Below, piece by piece: positions 762 through 7,087 of a stretch of DNA of 64,000 nucleotides (its first letter is position 1; every line of letters starts with the position of its first letter). Under the pieces are notes generated by a model. That model made no database searches. It saw nothing but the letters and a program-made list of their open reading frames with translations, and was not told the DNA's origin. The DNA comes from Candidatus Nomurabacteria bacterium (GTDB lineage Bacteria > Patescibacteriota > Minisyncoccia > Phycocordibacterales > SBAW01), in the NCBI GenBank assembly GCA_943348815.1, contig CALQYT010000001.1, forward strand, positions 12,488 through 76,487, in the 5' to 3' direction. The translations under genes and the position numbers were made by a program.

Positions 762-1493
762 ATGACAAAAAACTTGGGAAATGCGGGACCCTCTAGACGC
801 AACTTCCTACAAGGACTCGGGGCAGCGGCAGCGATCGTGACAGCTGGTGAATTACTAACCAATTCCGCGGAAGCACAGGAAGCTATTGAATCGCAAGAAA
901 ATAAAATTCCTTCAGTGCAGGAAATTGATACTATGACCCGAGAAACTCTTTCCACCCTGCGAAAGCAGGACAAGAGTATATGGGTTGAAAACGCGAGCGA
1001 CGAGCTTAGGAAGCGGATATTTGGCGGAAGCGACGTATCGGCAGGTATCCTGGCTTATTCCGATGGGACATCTGGTCAGGATATTTACACTCTGCTGAAT
1101 CGACGGAGGAACCAGGCGACATCACTACCCACGTCTGATCTCGTACACCAGATGGTTGAAAAACTTGATAGTGAACTCAAAAATGCCGAGACGTTGAAAA
1201 ACGACGCCCTGCAGTTACACAACACTTATCTAGTAGAGAGCCGGACGTTCTTCCGAAAAGTCGATTCTGCACTTGACCTGGAACTCAGAGCACAAAAACT
1301 TAAGGAGCAGGCTGCAAAGCTTAAGAATATTCCCGGCCTAAATGCAGATACTCTGCAAGGGCAAGGTGAGCCCGAACGTATCGATACTCTCCCAGCGTCT
1401 GAGCAAGTACGCGAAGCTGCACTTGCACTTGCTCGTGCGAATGACAAGTTACTCGAATTGCGGACCAAGTATTTACGGGACGAGCAGAGGTAG
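762..1493 (+). CDS. secreted coiled-coil protein with twin-arginine (Tat) signal peptide
   Basis: N-terminus MTKNLGNAGPSRRNFLQGLGAAAAIVTAG carries an SRRxFLx motif followed by a hydrophobic stretch. The remainder is charged and coiled-coil-like. Confidence 0.6.
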   Translation: MTKNLGNAGPSRRNFLQGLGAAAAIVTAGELLTNSAEAQEAIESQENKIPSVQEIDTMTRETLSTLRKQDKSIWVENASDELRKRIFGGSDVSAGILAYSDGTSGQDIYTLLNRRRNQATSLPTSDLVHQMVEKLDSELKNAETLKNDALQLHNTYLVESRTFFRKVDSALDLELRAQKLKEQAAKLKNIPGLNADTLQGQGEPERIDTLPASEQVREAALALARANDKLLELRTKYLRDEQR

Positions 1494-1520
1494 CTAAAAA
1501 TGCATTTTCCCCGAAACTTG

Positions 1521-1566
1521 TCCCTTCGGTAGGAATCGAACCTGCATCAACGGCTTAGAAGTCCGC
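1521..1566 (-). pseudogene. tRNA 3'-half fragment (anticodon arm + T-arm + 3' acceptor strand) with Arg-TCT-like anticodon loop
   Basis: Minus-strand read GCGGA-CTTCTAA-GCCGT-TGAT-GCAGG-TTCGATT-CCTAC-CGAAGGG-A has a T-loop GTTCGATTC and the same anticodon loop as the intact tRNA downstream. No complementary 5' acceptor strand or D-arm can be found upstream. Confidence 0.35.
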
Positions 1567-1577
1567 CACTACCCAAG

Positions 1578-1621
1578 CCGACGCTTCGGTCGGTTCCCCG
1601 ACCCGCTTTGCGGCGTCGGGG
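1578..1621. repeat. two adjacent GC-rich palindromic hairpin repeats (CCGAC-GCTTCG-GTCGG and CCCCGAC-CCGCTTTGCGGC-GTCGGGG)
   Basis: Perfect 5-bp and 7-bp stems read directly from the sequence. The same CCCCGAC...GTCGGGG motif recurs at 1998..2021, 10446..10482 and 13835..13854. Confidence 0.6.
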
Positions 1622-1638
1622 TTGAACTATTCTCTCCA

Positions 1639-1710
1639 TGCCCCCGCGAGGAGTCGAACCTCGAATAGCGGCTTAGAAGTCCGCAGTTATATCCGTTTAA
1701 CTACAGGGGC
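1639..1710 (-). tRNA. tRNA-Arg (anticodon TCT)
   Basis: 72-nt cloverleaf on the minus strand. Acceptor stem GCCCCTG pairs with CGGGGGC; D-arm GTTA/AACGGATA/TAAC; anticodon stem GCGGA/GCCGC with loop CTTCTAA; T-arm CGAGG-TTCGACT-CCTCG; discriminator A. CCA is not encoded. Confidence 0.85.
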
Positions 1711-1971
1711 TTATGGTTCAAGTCTAATGTATCCTTCTTTTATCATTTTCTCAATGTAGTCTTTCCGTTTAAGTCTCTTTATTTTACGTTCAACCGAACG
1801 TGCTTCTTTAAGAGTTTTATACTCTTGACTTAATAAAAGTTTCTTCACACCAAAATTTGCCGTGGTGTAGGTGTGTCCGAGCTCATGTTGTCTAAGACGT
1901 TTCTTAAGATCATGAGTACTGCCTATGTAATATCTCCCTACATTGGTTTCCAAAATGTATACCCAAGCCAT
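1711..1971 (-). CDS. GIY-YIG domain nuclease family protein (YhbQ/UPF0213-like, 86 aa)
   Basis: MAWVYILETNVGRYYIGSTHDLKKRLRQH is a GIY-YIG signature. Start is at the internal ATG at 1971..1969. The TAA stop at 1713..1711 directly abuts the tRNA +1 nucleotide at 1710. Confidence 0.8.
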   Translation of the reverse strand: MAWVYILETNVGRYYIGSTHDLKKRLRQHELGHTYTTANFGVKKLLLSQEYKTLKEARSVERKIKRLKRKDYIEKMIKEGYIRLEP

Positions 1972-1997
1972 AAATACTGAGAGGAGTTGGGTGCAAG

Positions 1998-2021
1998 CCC
2001 CGACGCACAAAGTGGTCGGGG
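1998..2021. repeat. palindromic hairpin repeat CCCCGAC-GCACAAAGTG-GTCGGGG
   Basis: 7-bp perfect stem. Lies immediately upstream of the GIY-YIG start codon. Confidence 0.55.
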
Positions 2022-2036
2022 AGCCGACTCGCCCAA

Positions 2037-2651
2037 CTAGAATAGTTGGGGCAGAACGTCGGCTCGCACCATAGCATATATGATAGCAAGCACCAGCACG
2101 AAGATGCTCACCCACAAGAAATAGCGCTTGATAAACACCAGCGCCTCGGCGCCAAAGCGGTGCGTAAGGTAGACAAAGAGCGCCATGCGGATGCCGCGGC
2201 CAAGCACATAGCCCAAAAAGTATGGCACAAAGTGTACGCCCAAAAATCCGCCGGCATAAATAAATACTTTGTCCGGTATTGGCGTAAACGACGCAACCGC
2301 CATCGCCAAAAATACGTGGCCCATAATATAGTGCCGCGCCATGCGGAAAGCTCCCTGCAGGTTATAAAACGCCAAAATCGGCTCGCCGAATTGTTTAAAC
2401 AAAAATGCGGCGACAAAGTAGCCGGTTGCTGCACCCAATGCGGAGCAAGTGATGGCGACGGCGAGGTAAGAGCGGGCGCGCTCTTTGTGCGCGAGCGTAA
2501 GGGCTACCAAAAATATCTCCGGCGCCACGGGGAAAAAGAGTGCATCGGTAAACGAAATGAGCCCGAGCCACCAGAGTGCATGGGGCCGTTGTGCCTGTAG
2601 CACAAACCACGCCCACCATCGCTCTTGCCAGAGCTTGAAGTAATTCTCCAT
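2037..2651 (-). CDS. YqaA/DedA-family (VTT domain) membrane protein
   Basis: Polytopic membrane protein. The motif ...VFLAMAVASFTPIPDKVFIYAGG... is typical of the YqaA/DedA family. Confidence 0.6.
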   Translation of the reverse strand: MENYFKLWQERWWAWFVLQAQRPHALWWLGLISFTDALFFPVAPEIFLVALTLAHKERARSYLAVAITCSALGAATGYFVAAFLFKQFGEPILAFYNLQGAFRMARHYIMGHVFLAMAVASFTPIPDKVFIYAGGFLGVHFVPYFLGYVLGRGIRMALFVYLTHRFGAEALVFIKRYFLWVSIFVLVLAIIYAMVRADVLPQLF

Positions 2652-2658
2652 ATCTTAT

Positions 2659-2988
2659 TTAACGCACGCGCGAGCCGGGGGTTGCGGCCGGGGCCTCCAA
2701 AATTGCAAACGGCGTTTCGCCATCTCCCCCAACTGCCAAGATCATTGCTTGGCTCTCAAGACCCATAATCGAGCGGGGCTCGAGGTTGGTCGCAAAGGCA
2801 AACTTTTTGCCGACTATTTCTTCTAATTTTACAAATTTGGCGATGCCGGAGATAACTTGTCTTTCTTCCGTACCAAAACTGACACGCAGCTTGAGCAACT
2901 TCTCCGAGCCCTCAACCGGCTCGGCCGCAAGTATCTCCCCTACTTGCATTTCGGCTTTTTTAAATTCGTCGATAGTGATATTAGTCAT
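2659..2988 (-). CDS. csaA: tRNA-binding protein CsaA/Trbp111 (EMAP/Myf domain)
   Basis: MTNITIDEFKKAEMQVGEILAAEPVEGSEKLLKLRVSFGTEERQVISGIAKFV...AFATNLEPRSIMGLESQAMILAVG matches the tRNA-binding OB-fold family. Start is at the internal ATG at 2988. Confidence 0.75.
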   Translation of the reverse strand: MTNITIDEFKKAEMQVGEILAAEPVEGSEKLLKLRVSFGTEERQVISGIAKFVKLEEIVGKKFAFATNLEPRSIMGLESQAMILAVGGDGETPFAILEAPAATPGSRVR

Positions 2989-3514
2989 TGCGTTTTTGAA
3001 GTGCCTCGCGTGCATCAAGGATAGTAGCACGTACCAACTCCGGATCGGGCACTTGTTTAAACGTTATCTTTTCATGCGCGCCGGCGGTCTCGACCGCAAC
3101 ATCACCAAAGTTAAAGAAAGTTGGGATAAGACCGTTGAGTGTGGTTGTCACATCCTCTACTCGCTCGACCGGTGCCTCAACCACCGTGTGAGCAAAAAAG
3201 CCCTGCTGCTGGCTGTCGAGTACGCGGTGGTTAGTAACTATCCAGTAATCAAGCGCGTAGAGCGTGAGTTGATAAAACAACAGGTGCCAGCCGGCAATAA
3301 CCAAGAGCAAAATCCCCAAGCCCACCACGCGTGCTAACCCTGACGCGACGATGTCGGGGTAAAAGAAAATAATCACCGCTGCCACCACTATCACAAAGAA
3401 CAGAAGTTGCAATCCTATCCCCACAAATACCCACCAGTGCCGGCGCAGCAACAAAAGTACGTGTTCTTCTGACCGTTGGCCCTCAAAACTATTTCTTGAT
3501 TTAAAAAGTGACAT
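2981..3514 (-). CDS. membrane protein with bacterial PH (bPH_2/YdbT-like) domain
   Basis: Two N-terminal TM helices followed by ...YWIVTNHRVL..., typical of the bPH_2 family. Start at the ATG at 3514 (MSLFKSR); 8-bp overlap with csaA. Confidence 0.5.
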   Translation of the reverse strand: MSLFKSRNSFEGQRSEEHVLLLLRRHWWVFVGIGLQLLFFVIVVAAVIIFFYPDIVASGLARVVGLGILLLVIAGWHLLFYQLTLYALDYWIVTNHRVLDSQQQGFFAHTVVEAPVERVEDVTTTLNGLIPTFFNFGDVAVETAGAHEKITFKQVPDPELVRATILDAREALQKRND

Positions 3515-3515
3515 A

Positions 3516-3725
3516 TTACAGGGGGAGCACCGCGCTAAAATCAACGGCTAAAAAAAATATGCCAAAGACCATCATCAACAGCACCGAGCCGGTGAGGTAT
3601 ACCGCCGCAAGCAGCTTGGGCAAACTCCCCACCCCAAAGCGGATGAGGTGGTAGAGCGCCACAAACATAAAAATAGCCTGTGCGAGCAGGAGAACCAGGA
3701 GTATCAGGGGCGGAAGGTAGGCCAT
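3516..3725 (-). CDS. small membrane protein (69 aa, two TM helices)
   Basis: Start at internal ATG 3725 (MAYLPPLILLVLLL...). Hydrophobic throughout and tightly packed against neighbouring genes. Confidence 0.4.
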   Translation of the reverse strand: MAYLPPLILLVLLLAQAIFMFVALYHLIRFGVGSLPKLLAAVYLTGSVLLMMVFGIFFLAVDFSAVLPL

Positions 3726-3735
3726 GAGGGTTATT

Positions 3736-4152
3736 TTACACGCCCTGGGCCCTATCGAGATAGCTCTGGAGTATGAGCGCCGCGGCCGAGGCGTCGAGGT
3801 TATCGTGCGCCGGGTTTTGCTTGCGCGAATTTTCTTCGGGCGCAAATTGTCGCGCCGCGAGCGCGGAGGTAAAAAACTCACGTTCGTACTCTACGGGGAG
3901 GCCCGCAAGATCGCCCAAATCTTTTTTAAATTGCTGGATGTCTTCTTGCACCGGATTATCTTCGCCTTGCAAGCCGCGCGACTCGCCTAAAATTACTTTT
4001 TCTACCTCCTCTTTTTTTATCAGTTCGACTATGGCCGAAAGTGCTTCCCTATCGGCGGCAATCACCGTGCGGGGGAAAGCAATTTTGCCATCCTGGTCAG
4101 ACACGGCAATGCCAATCTTTTTCGTCCCGTAATCTATCCCTAAATACCGCAT
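3736..4152 (-). CDS. ruvX: Holliday-junction resolvase-like protein RuvX/YqgF
   Basis: MRYLGIDYGTKKIGIAVSD... is a RuvX signature. Start at ATG 4152..4150. Confidence 0.85.
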   Translation of the reverse strand: MRYLGIDYGTKKIGIAVSDQDGKIAFPRTVIAADREALSAIVELIKKEEVEKVILGESRGLQGEDNPVQEDIQQFKKDLGDLAGLPVEYEREFFTSALAARQFAPEENSRKQNPAHDNLDASAAALILQSYLDRAQGV

Positions 4153-4240
4153 TGGTGTAGCATAGCAAACATTGGAGGGGTGGCAGACCACCGCCTACGG
4201 CGGGGCCTCGCCAAAGGCGATGGGTGGTCTACAAAACAAG

Positions 4241-4522
4241 ATGTACTTTGCATACATTCTACAGAGCAAAACCAGTGGCCGATATTATATAGGATCTACT
4301 CAAGATCTAGAGAACCGGCTGAAACAACACAATCGTGGTTCAAATAAATCCACACGCCCCTACCGCCCCTGGCAGCTCGTATACTCTGAATCTTTCCCGG
4401 ACAAAAAATCAGCATGGTTGCGCGAACAACAGATAAAAAGATATAAAGGCGGAGAAGCGTTCCACCGCTTGCTTCGGGATCCCGTCGAAGGCGGTGATAA
4501 AAAGCTTATAATAAACGCGTAA
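4241..4522 (+). CDS. GIY-YIG domain nuclease family protein (94 aa)
   Basis: MYFAYILQSKTSGRYYIGSTQDLENRLKQHN is a GIY-YIG signature. The TAA stop at 4520..4522 directly abuts tRNA-Ser +1 at 4523. Confidence 0.8.
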   Translation: MYFAYILQSKTSGRYYIGSTQDLENRLKQHNRGSNKSTRPYRPWQLVYSESFPDKKSAWLREQQIKRYKGGEAFHRLLRDPVEGGDKKLIINA

Positions 4523-4610
4523 GGAGGGATGGCAGAGTGGTCTATCGCACCGCACTTGAAATGCGGCGTACCGCAAGGTACCGGAGGTTCGAATCCTCCT
4601 CCCTCCGCCA
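4523..4610 (+). tRNA. tRNA-Ser (anticodon TGA), CCA encoded
   Basis: Acceptor stem GGAGGGA pairs with TCCCTCC. Anticodon stem CCGCA/TGCGG with loop CTTGAAA. Long variable arm CGTACCGCAAGGTAC is class II. T-arm CGGAG-GTTCGAATC-CTCCT; discriminator G followed by CCA. Confidence 0.9.
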
Positions 4611-6104
4611 AAATTCGGAATTCAAATTTCCGCCAAAAATATGGTCGGCGCGAAGCGCCGTCTGTTCTGCATTCCCCCCACAAAATCCTGATTCTGCAAG
4701 GATTCGCCACGCTCCGCGTGGCTCAAAAAAGACGGTTCGATCCTTAATTTGAAAGTTCGAACCGACTTTTTTGTACAAATGAATTTTTTCTTCATTTGTA
4801 CACTCGTTTGCCAATTCCACATTGAATTTCAAAAACTTTTCCGTAAGTTCGAACCGATTATTCGCTTTTTGCTCAAAAGCCGATAATTTCTCTTTGAGAA
4901 GCTGTTTTTGATTAACCAACGCACTTTTAGCGTCCCGATATTCCTCTAGTGAAAGTGCGTTCTCTAGGTAAGCGTTCATCAGCTTCTCAATCTTGGAATC
5001 CAAAAGAGAAATGTCTGCTTTTGTTTTGTCTGCAAAAAGCGTAGACGATTGGGCTTCCACCAATTTGTCTTTTTCGTTTTCCGCCAACATCCATTTAGCC
5101 CAATCGTCTGGCAAAGAAACTTTTTTGATTTCTTTTTGAATTTCGGAAGTGATGATTTCCTCACGAGTATATTTTTGTGAACAAGGATTTTTCCGCTTGG
5201 TACATCGTAAATAGTTATGACCTTTTTGTGTTTCGGTGGTAATAAAACATCCACATTCTCCACAACGGAAAAATCCTCTATACAAAAATGGTTTCAGTCC
5301 TTTCGGGTGAGGTTTAGATTTCCTCATCATCACTTCTTGAACAGAATCAAAAAGTTTCTTTGAAATAATCGGTTCGTGTTTGCCTTCGTGGATTTCACCG
5401 TTATACAACATTAAACCTGTGTATATCGGATTTTTCAAAAGTTTTTGATAATTCGACACCGCAAGTTCCTTTCCGCTTTTTCGTTTCAATCCAAGTTCGT
5501 TAAATTTGTCACGGAGCTGTCTCAAAGTGAAAGACCCAGACGAATATGCCTCAAATGTTTTCTTGATTAAAGGTGCGATACTTTCATCAACGACAATTTT
5601 CCCGCCCTCGTTTATATATCCGAGTGGAGACATTTGAGGCCATATACCGTCTTTCACTTTGTTTCTTTTTCCACGCTTGATATTCTCCGACAAATTGTCC
5701 ACATAATACTTGGATTGCGAAAAAGCGATTGAGAGCATGAATTTGCCTTGCGGTGTCGGATCACACCAGAAAGTTGGAAATTTTAGCTCGGCAATTTTTC
5801 CCGTATCGAGCAAATATATTATCTTTCCACCATCAACACTATTTCTCGCTAACCTATCGGGATGCCACGCTAAAATTCCGCTTGCCTCATTTTGCTCGAT
5901 ACGAAGAAGCATTTCATTAAATACTGGCCGACCCGGAACTTTAGCAGTTTGTTTTTCAACGAAGATATCTACAACTTCAATATTCTCTTTGAGGGCGAGA
6001 GATTTTAATTCGGCCAGTTGGTCTGAAATGCTTCTAACTTGCCGATCTTCAGTATCGGTAGATTTTCTTGTATATATGAAAAACTTTCTGGTGTGATTAT
6101 TCAT
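4542..6104 (-). CDS. large serine recombinase (resolvase/integrase family) with zinc-ribbon domain
   Basis: N-terminal FFIYTRKSTDTEDRQ...SISDQ is a serine-recombinase catalytic motif. Followed by a recombinase domain, a CGECGC...C zinc ribbon and a coiled-coil. The reading frame has no stop before running through IR-A into the tRNA, so the true C-terminus is uncertain. Confidence 0.85.
   Translation of the reverse strand: MNNHTRKFFIYTRKSTDTEDRQVRSISDQLAELKSLALKENIEVVDIFVEKQTAKVPGRPVFNEMLLRIEQNEASGILAWHPDRLARNSVDGGKIIYLLDTGKIAELKFPTFWCDPTPQGKFMLSIAFSQSKYYVDNLSENIKRGKRNKVKDGIWPQMSPLGYINEGGKIVVDESIAPLIKKTFEAYSSGSFTLRQLRDKFNELGLKRKSGKELAVSNYQKLLKNPIYTGLMLYNGEIHEGKHEPIISKKLFDSVQEVMMRKSKPHPKGLKPFLYRGFFRCGECGCFITTETQKGHNYLRCTKRKNPCSQKYTREEIITSEIQKEIKKVSLPDDWAKWMLAENEKDKLVEAQSSTLFADKTKADISLLDSKIEKLMNAYLENALSLEEYRDAKSALVNQKQLLKEKLSAFEQKANNRFELTEKFLKFNVELANECTNEEKIHLYKKVGSNFQIKDRTVFFEPRGAWRILAESGFCGGNAEQTALRADHIFGGNLNSEFWRREEDSNLRYLAVRRISSAVR
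4605..4724. repeat. inverted repeat A (120 bp, perfect partner at 6126..6245)
   Basis: The reverse complement of 4605..4724 is identical to 6126..6245 by hand alignment. Its first 6 nt (CCGCCA) are the 3' end of tRNA-Ser. Confidence 0.85.
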
Positions 6105-6125
6105 AGAATTGTATTGGCAAACGAG

Positions 6126-6245
6126 GAGCCACGCGGAGCGTGGCGAATCCTTGCAGAATCAGGATTTTGTGGGGGGAATGCAGAACAGACGGCGCTTCGC
6201 GCCGACCATATTTTTGGCGGAAATTTGAATTCCGAATTTTGGCGG
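6126..6245. repeat. inverted repeat B (partner of A)
   Basis: Identical to the reverse complement of 4605..4724. Confidence 0.85.
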
Positions 6246-6429
6246 TGTTTGTTGGACAAAGTTCGAAACTATTTCGAGCAGAATCCAAATGATTAAAGCG
6301 GACTCGGCAGGGCGAAACAATTTGTCTGGGGGAAAGGATTCGCCCTGCCTCGGCTGATTTCCCGCCCGCAGGAAGGGTCTGGGGAGGAATGCGGGCGGGT
6401 TTCGGATTCGCCAAATTCTTTTTTCGCCA
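6241..6429. repeat. inverted repeat C (189 bp, partner at 8252..8440, 1 mismatch)
   Basis: The reverse complement of 8252..8440 matches with a single A/G mismatch. It shares the GGCGG core with IR-B and contains internal hairpins such as CCCGCCCGCA...TGCGGGCGGG. Confidence 0.85.
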
Positions 6430-6503
6430 ATCAGAATTCATATATGGGATTATACCTCCATATTGAGGAGAAGCGCAATAGTTGATAACATGTTAATATA
6501 AAT

Positions 6504-6710
6504 ATGTCCCAAACTTCCAAAACATTAGGCAATAACATCAAACGCTTACGGCTTCGCCGTAAAATGTCGCAAGGCGACATTTGTCGAGCAATTAGCATGG
6601 ATAGGAGCTATATGAGCGCGATTGAGGGTGGTAAAGTAAATGTTACCTTAGTGGTTTTAGAAAAGCTCGCCAAAGCGCTTGATGTTTCAGTTGATGAGCT
6701 TTTGAAATAA
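6504..6710 (+). CDS. XRE-family helix-turn-helix transcriptional regulator (68 aa)
   Basis: LGNNIKRLRLRRKMSQGDICRAISMDRSYMSAIEGGKVNVTLVVLEKLAKAL is a canonical Cro/C1 HTH. Confidence 0.8.
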   Translation: MSQTSKTLGNNIKRLRLRRKMSQGDICRAISMDRSYMSAIEGGKVNVTLVVLEKLAKALDVSVDELLK

Positions 6711-6711
6711 T

Positions 6712-7083
6712 ATGGAAAAAAATTTAAAAACAATTATTTACGATTTAGAAACTTCCCTCCTAAAACCAGAGATTAGGTCGTCGACTAGTGATTTGGATTT
6801 GCTATTAGCCGACGATTTTAGAGAATTTGGAAGTTCGGGTGAAATTTATGACAAAAAACTTATACTTGAAAGGTTGCCAAAAGATACACAAACTTCACCT
6901 GTTGAGTTTTTGGTTTCTGATTTTCAAATTCAAGAGTTAGGTGAAAATATTGTTTTGGCAACCTTTAAGACAGACAAAACCTTGCCTGATAAAAGTCATG
7001 TTGGCGCTTTGAGAACTTCAATATGGAGAAAAAATAATAACAGTTGGCAAATGATTTTTCATCAAGGAACACCGACAAAATAA
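6712..7083 (+). CDS. NTF2-like/DUF4440-like domain protein
   Basis: LLADDFREFGSSGEIYDK...W...FHQGT pattern, recognised by memory only. AT-rich codon usage. Confidence 0.35.
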   Translation: MEKNLKTIIYDLETSLLKPEIRSSTSDLDLLLADDFREFGSSGEIYDKKLILERLPKDTQTSPVEFLVSDFQIQELGENIVLATFKTDKTLPDKSHVGALRTSIWRKNNNSWQMIFHQGTPTK

Positions 7084-7087
7084 TTCT

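Follow-up and report, generated by a model that had tools for sequence, protein, structure and literature searches.

Why should a small nuclease gene end at the very nucleotide that precedes a tRNA gene, and do so twice in one piece of chromosome? The question is raised by a stretch of 64,000 nucleotides from a Candidatus Nomurabacteria bacterium of the Patescibacteriota (GenBank assembly GCA_943348815.1, contig CALQYT010000001.1, positions 12,488 to 76,487), termed here the window; positions in the window are counted from its first letter. An open reading frame (ORF no. 1) that encodes a GIY-YIG protein of 93 amino acids (aa) ends with TAA at 4520–4522, and position +1 of an intact tRNA-Ser(TGA) follows at 4523 with zero gap. 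A second GIY-YIG reading frame, ORF no. 2, adjoins an intact tRNA-Arg(TCT) (Table 1). The analysis described below suggests, with a probability of roughly 0.6, that the locus holds one copy of a selfish, homing-like cassette, which would have tRNA genes as its targets and would restore them. Four parts make up the cassette: a tRNA fragment; one or two GC-rich hairpins with an invariant 5-bp core, situated in what would be a tRNA loop; a nuclease reading frame of 80–93 aa; and an intact tRNA, of which one copy is always kept at cassette loci. This combination of nuclease gene, hairpins and duplicated tRNA piece is widespread and apparently so far undescribed. No description of the arrangement was found in the open-access literature, an earlier report elsewhere being possible.

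GIY-YIG genes at tRNA genes

Both reading frames match the Pfam GIY-YIG family (PF01541) above its curated cut-off, with E values of 4e-19 for ORF no. 1 and 2e-13 for ORF no. 2, and they are the only GIY-YIG reading frames in the 64-kb window. The sequence-only reading had reported the stop codon directly abutting tRNA +1 at 4520–4523, as at 1639–1971, and the sequence, the ORF list, ARAGORN and Rfam agree on this. It had also regarded the pair as old paralogs. That view holds: the proteins are 36% identical and fall into separate clades, each with its own tRNA class and hairpin type. The ORF no. 2 protein is 100% identical to P0049; exact-sequence look-ups with ORF no. 1 and RuvX of the window returned no matching record. 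An independent assembly of the same organism (locus L085, a contig end in ENA ERZ27280317) ends approximately 160 nt past RuvX, inside ORF no. 1. This assembly break may reflect strain heterogeneity or repeats at the cassette.

Two sets of related loci bear on whether the layout recurs. The clade-1 set consists of 80 loci from species-representative genomes, found with a profile of ORF no. 1 relatives, and the clade-2 set of 80 loci from metagenomes, found with a profile of ORF no. 2 relatives. All 160 are best tblastn matches; single loci are cited here by number (for example, L081). A same-strand tRNA start, as called by ARAGORN, lies within ±40 nt of the stop codon in 58/80 clade-1 and 70/80 clade-2 loci. 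The share expected by chance, taken from the tRNA density in the remainder of the same loci, is 0.5–1.1%. In 12 further clade-1 loci, a same-strand tRNA is found 0–60 nt upstream instead. The enrichment 5′ of tRNA genes, which had been put forward as a check on the first two cases, is thus present in 128/160 related loci, and since the layout recurs, a coincidence of two cases is ruled out.

Many of the reading frames have a stop codon supplied by the tRNA itself. With class I tRNAs it is the TAG at U8-A9-G10 (offset −10), and with tRNA-Ser(GGA) the TAG at positions 13–15 (offset −15). The tRNA partners in clade 1 are mainly long-arm species, Ser (42) and Tyr (8); those in clade 2 include Arg (40), Thr (16) and Val (7). 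Hosts of the clade-1 set are mostly Patescibacteria, with Omnitrophota, Ignavibacteria and Bacteroidales (Bacteroidota) also represented.

Duplicated tRNA fragments and hairpins

Upstream of ORF no. 1 there is a duplicate of the first 14 positions of tRNA-Ser, termed copy A, which has one mismatch with 4523–4536. The sequence-only reading had overlooked this fragment, the double hairpin in it and the place of the GIY-YIG gene in an inserted cassette. Its D-loop holds a double hairpin of the CCGCC/GGCGG type, and the D-loop sequence continues past the hairpin. Covariance model R1 scores 59 bits at 4183–4227, the sole strong match in the window, and the hairpin region folded as DNA has a free energy of −15.7 kcal/mol (z = −2.95). 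The same D-loop layout is displayed by the type B loci L014, L019, L022 and L008. A degenerate second double hairpin in the 3′ end of ORF no. 1 scores 21.5 bits with R1 on the minus strand and has a near-perfect copy at the same place in L081. It encodes the C-terminal tail of the protein, which is predicted to be disordered.

Partial copies of the 5′ end of the downstream tRNA, 40–110 nt upstream of the reading frame, reach a score of at least 24 in 49/62 loci vs 3/62 control regions. The copy is frequently exact for positions 1–36 or 1–15 and is interrupted by the double hairpin; in clade 2 it spans positions 1–10 or 1–15. In the first 80 loci (6 kb each), the R1 motif is strong in approximately 55 and is found almost only directly upstream of the reading frame. 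Clade-1 motifs follow either position 35/36, in the anticodon loop, or position 14, in the D-loop; the D-loop form is a near-perfect palindrome that scores on both strands. The clade-2 hairpin has the form NNCCGAC-loop-GTCGGN′N′, present twice, between D-loop positions 15 and 16 or after G10.

The type of hairpin differs with the nuclease clade. The CCGCC-type hairpin is found in 71/80 clade-1 and 10/79 clade-2 loci, and the CCGAC-type hairpin in 2/80 and 75/79, respectively. In an alignment of 19 CCGAC-type elements, 266/266 stem cells are paired and the inner 5 bp are invariant; the outer 2 bp of each stem show 40 double-sided changes, 0 one-sided changes and no G.U pair. A wider count of stems with one mismatch gave no excess of G.T over A.C. 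The lack of G.T bias offers no support for selection on RNA only, but a role at the DNA level is not thereby proven. Rfam searches of the window (E ≤ 1) and of seven related loci (E ≤ 0.1) assigned the hairpin regions to no family, whether intron, ribozyme or other.

The ORF no. 2 locus displays the clade-2 form of the cassette. Its upstream double hairpin, folded as DNA, has −24.5 kcal/mol (z = −6.1). Past the intact tRNA-Arg(TCT) there is a disrupted second copy, which carries a 46-nt double hairpin (1576–1621) in the D-loop, an arrangement shared with L168, L161, L139, L105 and L091. In many clade-2 loci, the intact tRNA is followed by such a disrupted tRNA, which lacks the 5′ acceptor strand and is made up of positions 8–15, the double hairpin and everything from position 16 up to the 3′ end.

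Empty sites and changes of tRNA partner

The cassette is present or absent at syntenic sites. Relatives L169–L174 share with the window a block of RuvX, tRNA_bind and VTT genes, the VTT protein being 69–75% identical. They have an empty site, in which VTT is followed after 2–12 nt by tRNA-Arg(TCT), with no small GIY-YIG gene and no hairpin. The VTT protein of the relatives ends in ..YGMVHWHLLGL before the stop and that of the window in ..YAMVRADVLPQLF (..YAMVR ADVLPQLF), the first hairpin arm encoding the new tail. Presence and absence were also found at two further conserved sites: the 5′ flank of tRNA-Ser(TGA) is bare in L173, and the tRNA-Arg(GCG) flank lacks a hairpin in L169 and L173.

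Other nuclease genes are found near these sites. In L172 (1180–1640, minus strand), an ORF for an HNH-type endonuclease (..HVHHKDRDRKNN..CPNCHYEEHY..) ends 4 nt before tRNA-Ser(TGA), the place of the cassette in the window. Nuclease genes of different kinds seem to be drawn to the 5′ flank of this tRNA. A DUF6884 gene and a 210-aa GIY_YIG_3 (PF26468) gene form an operon directly upstream of RuvX in L169–L174. In the window, the small GIY-YIG cassette and tRNA-Ser adjoin RuvX at this location. The syntenic block of the relatives is flanked by DUF6884, GIY_YIG_3, pseudouridine synthase and L19 genes, none of which is found in the window.

The two tRNA-Arg(TCT) copies of the window are different alleles. 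Over the 3′ 50 nt, the intact ‘alpha’ copy is 46/50 identical to the tRNA of L169/L170 and the disrupted ‘beta’ copy 45/50 identical to that of L172, and the two are 37/50 identical to each other. They are not a simple local duplication. The two alleles are in keeping with the arrival of a cassette that carried its own tRNA or introduced it by recombination. Together with the overwritten VTT end, they argue for gain over loss.

The tRNA partner changes over moderate divergence. The closest relative of ORF no. 1 (67% identity, L081) has an identical 36-nt hairpin and GTGGTCTA, but its neighbours differ, it is situated at tRNA-Ser(GGA), and its left fragment is a copy of that tRNA. Proteins at 70–80% identity have the same anticodon in 30/85 pairs, and differing anticodons are seen up to 82%. 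The switches are from one Arg isoacceptor to another or between Arg, Thr, Val and Asn. In 82%-identical pairs, the homologous nucleotide stretch begins at the first base of the tRNA fragment and extends, across hairpin and reading frame, as far as the D-arm of the intact tRNA; the flanks are unrelated. A difference within these pairs is that hairpin units have been inserted precisely into the loops of hairpins already present.

The nuclease

A profile search of PDB sequences with ORF no. 1 ranks the UPF0213 proteins BH0048 (1zg2, 1.7e-13) and EF2693 (1ywl, 1.7e-9) first, followed by Slx1 (~1e-5) and I-TevI (6e-3). Prokaryotic UPF0213 proteins are also known by the names YhbQ/YazA. The AlphaFold2 model has a predicted local distance difference test (pLDDT) score of 86.9, with residues 83–93, the C-terminal 11, predicted to be disordered. 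Foldseek with this model gives the same ranking as the sequence search (1zg2, 1ywl and the Slx1 entries 4xm5, 7cq3 and 6sei). At 80–93 aa, the protein consists of the catalytic domain alone. No invariant Asn follows the catalytic Glu in the alignments; a C-terminal Asn marks the UvrC/homing-endonuclease lineage, and the Slx1-like domain is the minimal form (PMC1564403). Sequence and predicted fold thus place the protein in the prokaryotic Slx1-like/UPF0213 branch, outside the homing-endonuclease branch; UvrC is likewise less close. The group I intron endonuclease model TIGR01453 was rejected, with 25.6 bits vs a cut-off of 56 and a match to residues 3–39 only.

Catalytic residues Y5, Y16, R26, H30 and E62, or their equivalents, are kept in 80–81 of 81 sequences per clade. 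The median ratio of nonsynonymous to synonymous substitution rates (dN/dS) is 0.35 and 0.24 for the two clades, which indicates purifying selection on the nuclease. With conserved catalytic residues and a dN/dS of 0.24–0.35, the protein is predicted to be catalytically active. PADLOC gave no significant defence-system match for the nuclease (weak matches HEase, 1e-4, and PDC-S14, 3e-4), and PHROGs gave weak homing-endonuclease-type matches only. Prokaryotic Slx1-like domains are also found fused to tRNA methyltransferase-type domains, and a part in RNA metabolism has been suggested (PMC1564403).

Proposed explanation

How might such a cassette move? The nuclease would recognize its cognate hairpin, or a cruciform, by structure and core sequence, as Slx1 does with branched DNA, and would nick or cut at tRNA genes. 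Recombinational repair that uses tRNA sequence as homology may then copy the hairpin and the reading frame into a new tRNA gene and, in doing so, may duplicate part of the target. With part of the tRNA gene duplicated, the essential tRNA would never be lost and no splicing would be needed. The position of the reading frame against tRNA +1 suggests expression from the tRNA transcription unit; reading frame and tRNA probably share one transcript, which RNase P would cut at +1 into message and tRNA. A scan of 1400–4800 for sigma-70 promoters and terminators gave nothing beyond shuffled expectation, and co-transcription therefore stays an inference.

Several points weigh against a homing-like cassette. 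Nuclease activity, cleavage site and movement are read from sequence, and the 160 loci, as best matches, are not a random sample. Proteins that are at least 90% identical have the same anticodon in 16/16 pairs, so many copies may be old residents. The Slx1-like branch has been described as mostly vertically inherited (PMC1564403), and purifying selection fits a host function equally well. The protein has no C-terminal DNA-binding module of the Seg/I-TevI type and on this count stands outside that group. Two scans of viral contigs revealed no relatives of the small GIY-YIG protein, and no vector is known. Presence and absence of the cassette could in principle reflect loss. Finally, simple homing does not account for the fact that the intact tRNA which is kept escapes being cut again.

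Solo hairpins, mirrored loci and arrays

The window contains seven CCGAC-type hairpins vs 0.6 expected, most of them near tRNA genes; two flank ORF no. 2 and its tRNA. A perfect single hairpin at 13835–13854 is found in the apparent linker of a putative RuvA-like protein, the RuvA label being read from the translation. Its 16 central bases are those of the hairpin in the disrupted tRNA at 1578–1593. The spacer between tRNA-Arg(GCG) and tRNA-Arg(CCG) (10560–10700) has more GC hairpins (TCCCGC-ACTG-GCGGGA; CGCGA..TCGCG) and a terminator-like stem.

A mirrored layout is found in Bacteroidales, Ignavibacteria and some Patescibacteria. The intact tRNA comes first and is followed by the ORF, whose stop codon is in a D-arm copy; then come a hairpin that replaces the D or anticodon arm and the 3′ part of the tRNA. 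Units of tRNA and ORF can occur as tandem repeats, and the T-loops of some loci also hold hairpins. In L064 (3342–3730), approximately 2.5 tandem units of 159 nt consist of tRNA 3′ fragments with hairpins in the anticodon and T loops. L045 (3390–4410) has 12 units of 86 nt, each with a tRNA-Tyr fragment, a hairpin and a terminator-like stem. In L058 (both ARAGORN tRNA-Pro copies) and L075 (the copy downstream of the ORF), at approximately 2870–3312, the D-arm is replaced by a CCCCGCC-nnnn-GGCGGGG hairpin. In L084, the locus of the second-closest relative of ORF no. 1, the cassette with its hairpin is immediately preceded by a Y1_Tnp (PF01797) gene (129–848).

Alternative explanations

Does the gene instead serve the host? 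A housekeeping nuclease could act on tRNA or pre-tRNA in processing, repair or quality control and be co-transcribed with the tRNA, the tRNA fragment and hairpin forming a regulatory or stabilizing RNA leader. This would account for an ORF that always has the orientation of the tRNA and abuts it, and it agrees with purifying selection, with conservation across phyla and with the Slx1-like fusions to tRNA methyltransferase-type domains (PMC1564403). However, syntenic relatives do without the cassette, and close relatives are found at different tRNA identities. Tandem arrays, nested hairpins and hairpins in coding regions also speak against it, as does a motif that scores on both strands. Stems with no G.U pair (0 one-sided vs 40 double-sided changes) and no G.T excess would be unusual for selection on RNA only. 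A host function is thus considered unlikely.

The hairpins might also be independent elements that resemble repetitive extragenic palindromic (REP) sequences or miniature inverted-repeat transposable elements (MITEs). They would be moved by another enzyme, such as a Y1 transposase or a REP-associated tyrosine transposase (RAYT), and would accumulate in dead tRNA copies with the GIY-YIG gene as a bystander. Solo copies away from a GIY-YIG reading frame (10444–10482, 13835–13854), nesting of the kind seen in small mobile repeats, and the Y1_Tnp gene next to the L084 cassette are in keeping with this proposal. Yet hairpin type follows GIY-YIG clade almost perfectly, and within the 6-kb loci the motif is found almost only beside the reading frame. 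Moreover, the relatives examined that have no small GIY-YIG gene have no hairpins either, and no Y1 transposase is found beside the other loci examined. Independent hairpins are therefore rather improbable.

A defence module, either toxin–antitoxin-like or RNA-guided, is a far weaker candidate. Here a nuclease directed against tRNAs or their genes would have the tRNA-like fragment and hairpin as its decoy, antitoxin or guide, a role to which a leader that mimics the adjacent tRNA, hairpins in its D or anticodon loop and the covariation of protein and hairpin lend themselves. PADLOC, however, gives weak homing-endonuclease-type matches only, 86 aa is very small for a guided nuclease and the stems do not tolerate G.U. 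That the fragment is in every case taken from the adjacent tRNA is more simply accounted for by insertion.

Coincidence in a compact genome, as Patescibacterial genomes are, or the reading frame of a tRNA intron, given that bacterial tRNA genes can carry group I introns, is scarcely credible with the pattern repeated in 128/160 related loci, an intact adjacent tRNA, and no intron or ribozyme family matched by Rfam in the window and seven loci.

Comparison with known systems

The nearest functional analogue is SegB of phage T4, a GIY-YIG homing enzyme whose site contains the conserved tRNA T-stem-loop motif and which drives inheritance of itself and of neighbouring tRNA genes (PMC2330249). As with SegB, the cassette has a GIY-YIG gene among tRNA genes and shows presence and absence between relatives. 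SegB is phage-borne and larger, and enzymes of its type belong to the homing-endonuclease branch and have C-terminal DNA-binding modules, whereas the cassette protein is chromosomal and has the catalytic domain only. A further difference is that a duplicated tRNA fragment and cognate hairpins invariably accompany the cassette nuclease.

In sequence and fold the protein is closest to Slx1/UPF0213, with which it shares a minimal stand-alone GIY-YIG domain and the lack of a conserved C-terminal Asn. The DNA that Slx1 cuts is branched or forms stem-loops, and this suggests that the cassette nuclease recognizes the hairpin by its structure. Eukaryotic Slx1 differs in that it has a RING domain and needs Slx4. 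A phylogenomic survey that includes the UPF0213 family gives no tRNA linkage, hairpin partner or mobility for it (PMC1564403).

A further parallel is offered by bacterial palindromic repeats. REP/REPIN sequences are short GC-rich palindromes, often inverted doublets, that flank a RAYT gene thought to move them, with solo copies elsewhere. RAYTs are HUH/Y1 enzymes, and REPs are not known to be tied to tRNA genes or to duplication of tRNA fragments. The cassette is similar in having palindromes beside an enzyme gene and solo copies, but its enzyme is a GIY-YIG protein and it is linked to tRNA. Membership in the REP/REPIN–RAYT systems was rejected, as the associated reading frame is GIY-YIG and a Y1_Tnp neighbour is found in L084 only. 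Perhaps, and this is offered tentatively, the elements constitute a new class in which a minimal Slx1-like nuclease recognizes its cognate hairpin by the invariant 5-bp core and the stem, and moves such hairpins and its own gene into tRNA loop regions and into the loops of other hairpins. Such a class, itself a possibility that is open to considerable doubt, would parallel the RAYT/REPIN partnership with a GIY-YIG enzyme and would by its own design restore the tRNA that it hits.

Mitochondrial endonuclease reading frames can enter a gene and supply a substitute for its displaced end, which makes splicing unnecessary. Allomyces mitochondrial double-hairpin elements are small GC-rich repeats of two hairpins for which evidence points to mobility (Paquin et al. 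2000, as cited in PMC3787672). Elements of this type are found in fungal organelles and target protein or rRNA genes, whereas the cassette is in bacterial chromosomes and at tRNA genes. A clade-specific pairing of hairpin and nuclease is not known among them.

Integrase islands at tRNA 3′ ends also use a tRNA as landing site and restore it with a copy of the displaced part. One island of this kind (4611–9965, with a serine recombinase) adjoins the other side of tRNA-Ser(TGA). The cassette differs from such islands in its size (~0.35 kb), and it duplicates the 5′ part of the tRNA in Patescibacteria but the 3′ part at loci of the Bacteroidota type. Classification as a tRNA-targeting integrative element was rejected, since the cassette has no recombinase and duplicates the 5′ end of the tRNA. 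None of the four systems, SegB, REPIN/RAYT, the Allomyces elements and integrase islands, combines an Slx1-like nuclease, clade-specific hairpins and duplication of a tRNA fragment.

Neighbouring features of the window

The 3′ end of tRNA-Ser(TGA) is a separate insertion site. In L172 and L173, a homolog (64–66% identical) of the window gene 9966–10430 starts approximately 24 nt after tRNA-Ser(TGA), and the contig-truncated L174 is consistent with this; the intervening 4611–9965 is therefore an insertion. The sequence-only reading had proposed a recombinase element at this tRNA 3′ end, and synteny with L172 and L173 bears it out. No direct repeat of the tRNA-Ser 3′ end that might be an attachment (att) site was found within the window. 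The two adjoining inverted-repeat pairs (4605–8440) look like invertible segments, or are possibly an assembly artefact.

Table 1. Positions of cassette parts, hairpins and neighbouring features in the 64-kb window.
Feature	Position	Strand	Remarks
Disrupted second tRNA-Arg(TCT) (tRNA*, ‘beta’ allele)	1519–1637	−	Without pairing 5′ acceptor strand
Intact tRNA-Arg(TCT), ‘alpha’ allele	1639–1710	−	Adjoins ORF no. 2 stop; ARAGORN and Rfam
GIY-YIG ORF no. 2, 86 aa	1971–1711	−	Stop 1713–1711
Double hairpin, CCGAC/GTCGG type, upstream of ORF no. 2	1998–2064	−	First arm replaces last VTT/DedA codons
Copy A, duplicate of tRNA-Ser positions 1–14	4174–4187	+	GGAGGGGTGGCAGA vs GGAGGGATGGCAGA at 4523; read from sequence
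Double hairpin, CCGCC/GGCGG type	4188–4223		CCACCGCCTACGGCGGGGCCTCGCCAAAGGCGATGG; in D-loop of copy A; nearly palindromic
D-loop continuation (~positions 15–22) past hairpin	4224–4231	+	GTGGTCTA; then 9-nt leader and ATG
GIY-YIG ORF no. 1, 93 aa	4241–4522	+	ATG 4241, TAA 4520–4522
Degenerate second double hairpin in ORF no. 1 3′ end	4462–4497	+	Encodes ..HRLLRDPVEGGD..; palindrome
Intact tRNA-Ser(TGA)	4523–4610	+	ARAGORN and Rfam, 54.6 bits
Large serine recombinase ORF	6104–4542	−	Pfam Resolvase, Recombinase and Zn_ribbon_recom
Inverted-repeat pair, 120 nt, 100%	4605–4724 with 6126–6245		Around recombinase gene; begins 6 nt inside tRNA
Inserted island	4611–9965		At tRNA-Ser(TGA) 3′ end; synteny with L169, L172 and L173
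Inverted-repeat pair, 189 nt, 99%	6241–6429 with 8252–8440		Around helix-turn-helix (HTH) gene and two unknown genes
Solo double hairpin, CCGAC type	10444–10482	+	2 nt upstream of tRNA-Arg(GCG) 10485–10557; folding z = −4.1
Single CCCCGAC-CGAAGC-GTCGGGG hairpin, perfect	13835–13854	+	In frame in putative RuvA-like ORF 13407–14006

Significance

If the homing-like explanation is correct, it would provide a role for stand-alone Slx1/UPF0213-type nucleases, a large family that has hardly been studied. It would also represent a way in which a selfish gene occupies an essential RNA gene without an intron, by duplication of part of that gene. The pseudo-tRNAs, tRNA-fragment arrays and GC-rich hairpins in tRNA flanks and coding regions of Patescibacteria and other uncultured lineages, which mislead tRNA callers and break assemblies, would thereby be explained. 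A nuclease of 86–93 aa and a short hairpin with an invariant core form a putative protein–DNA recognition pair that is easily testable and might be programmable.

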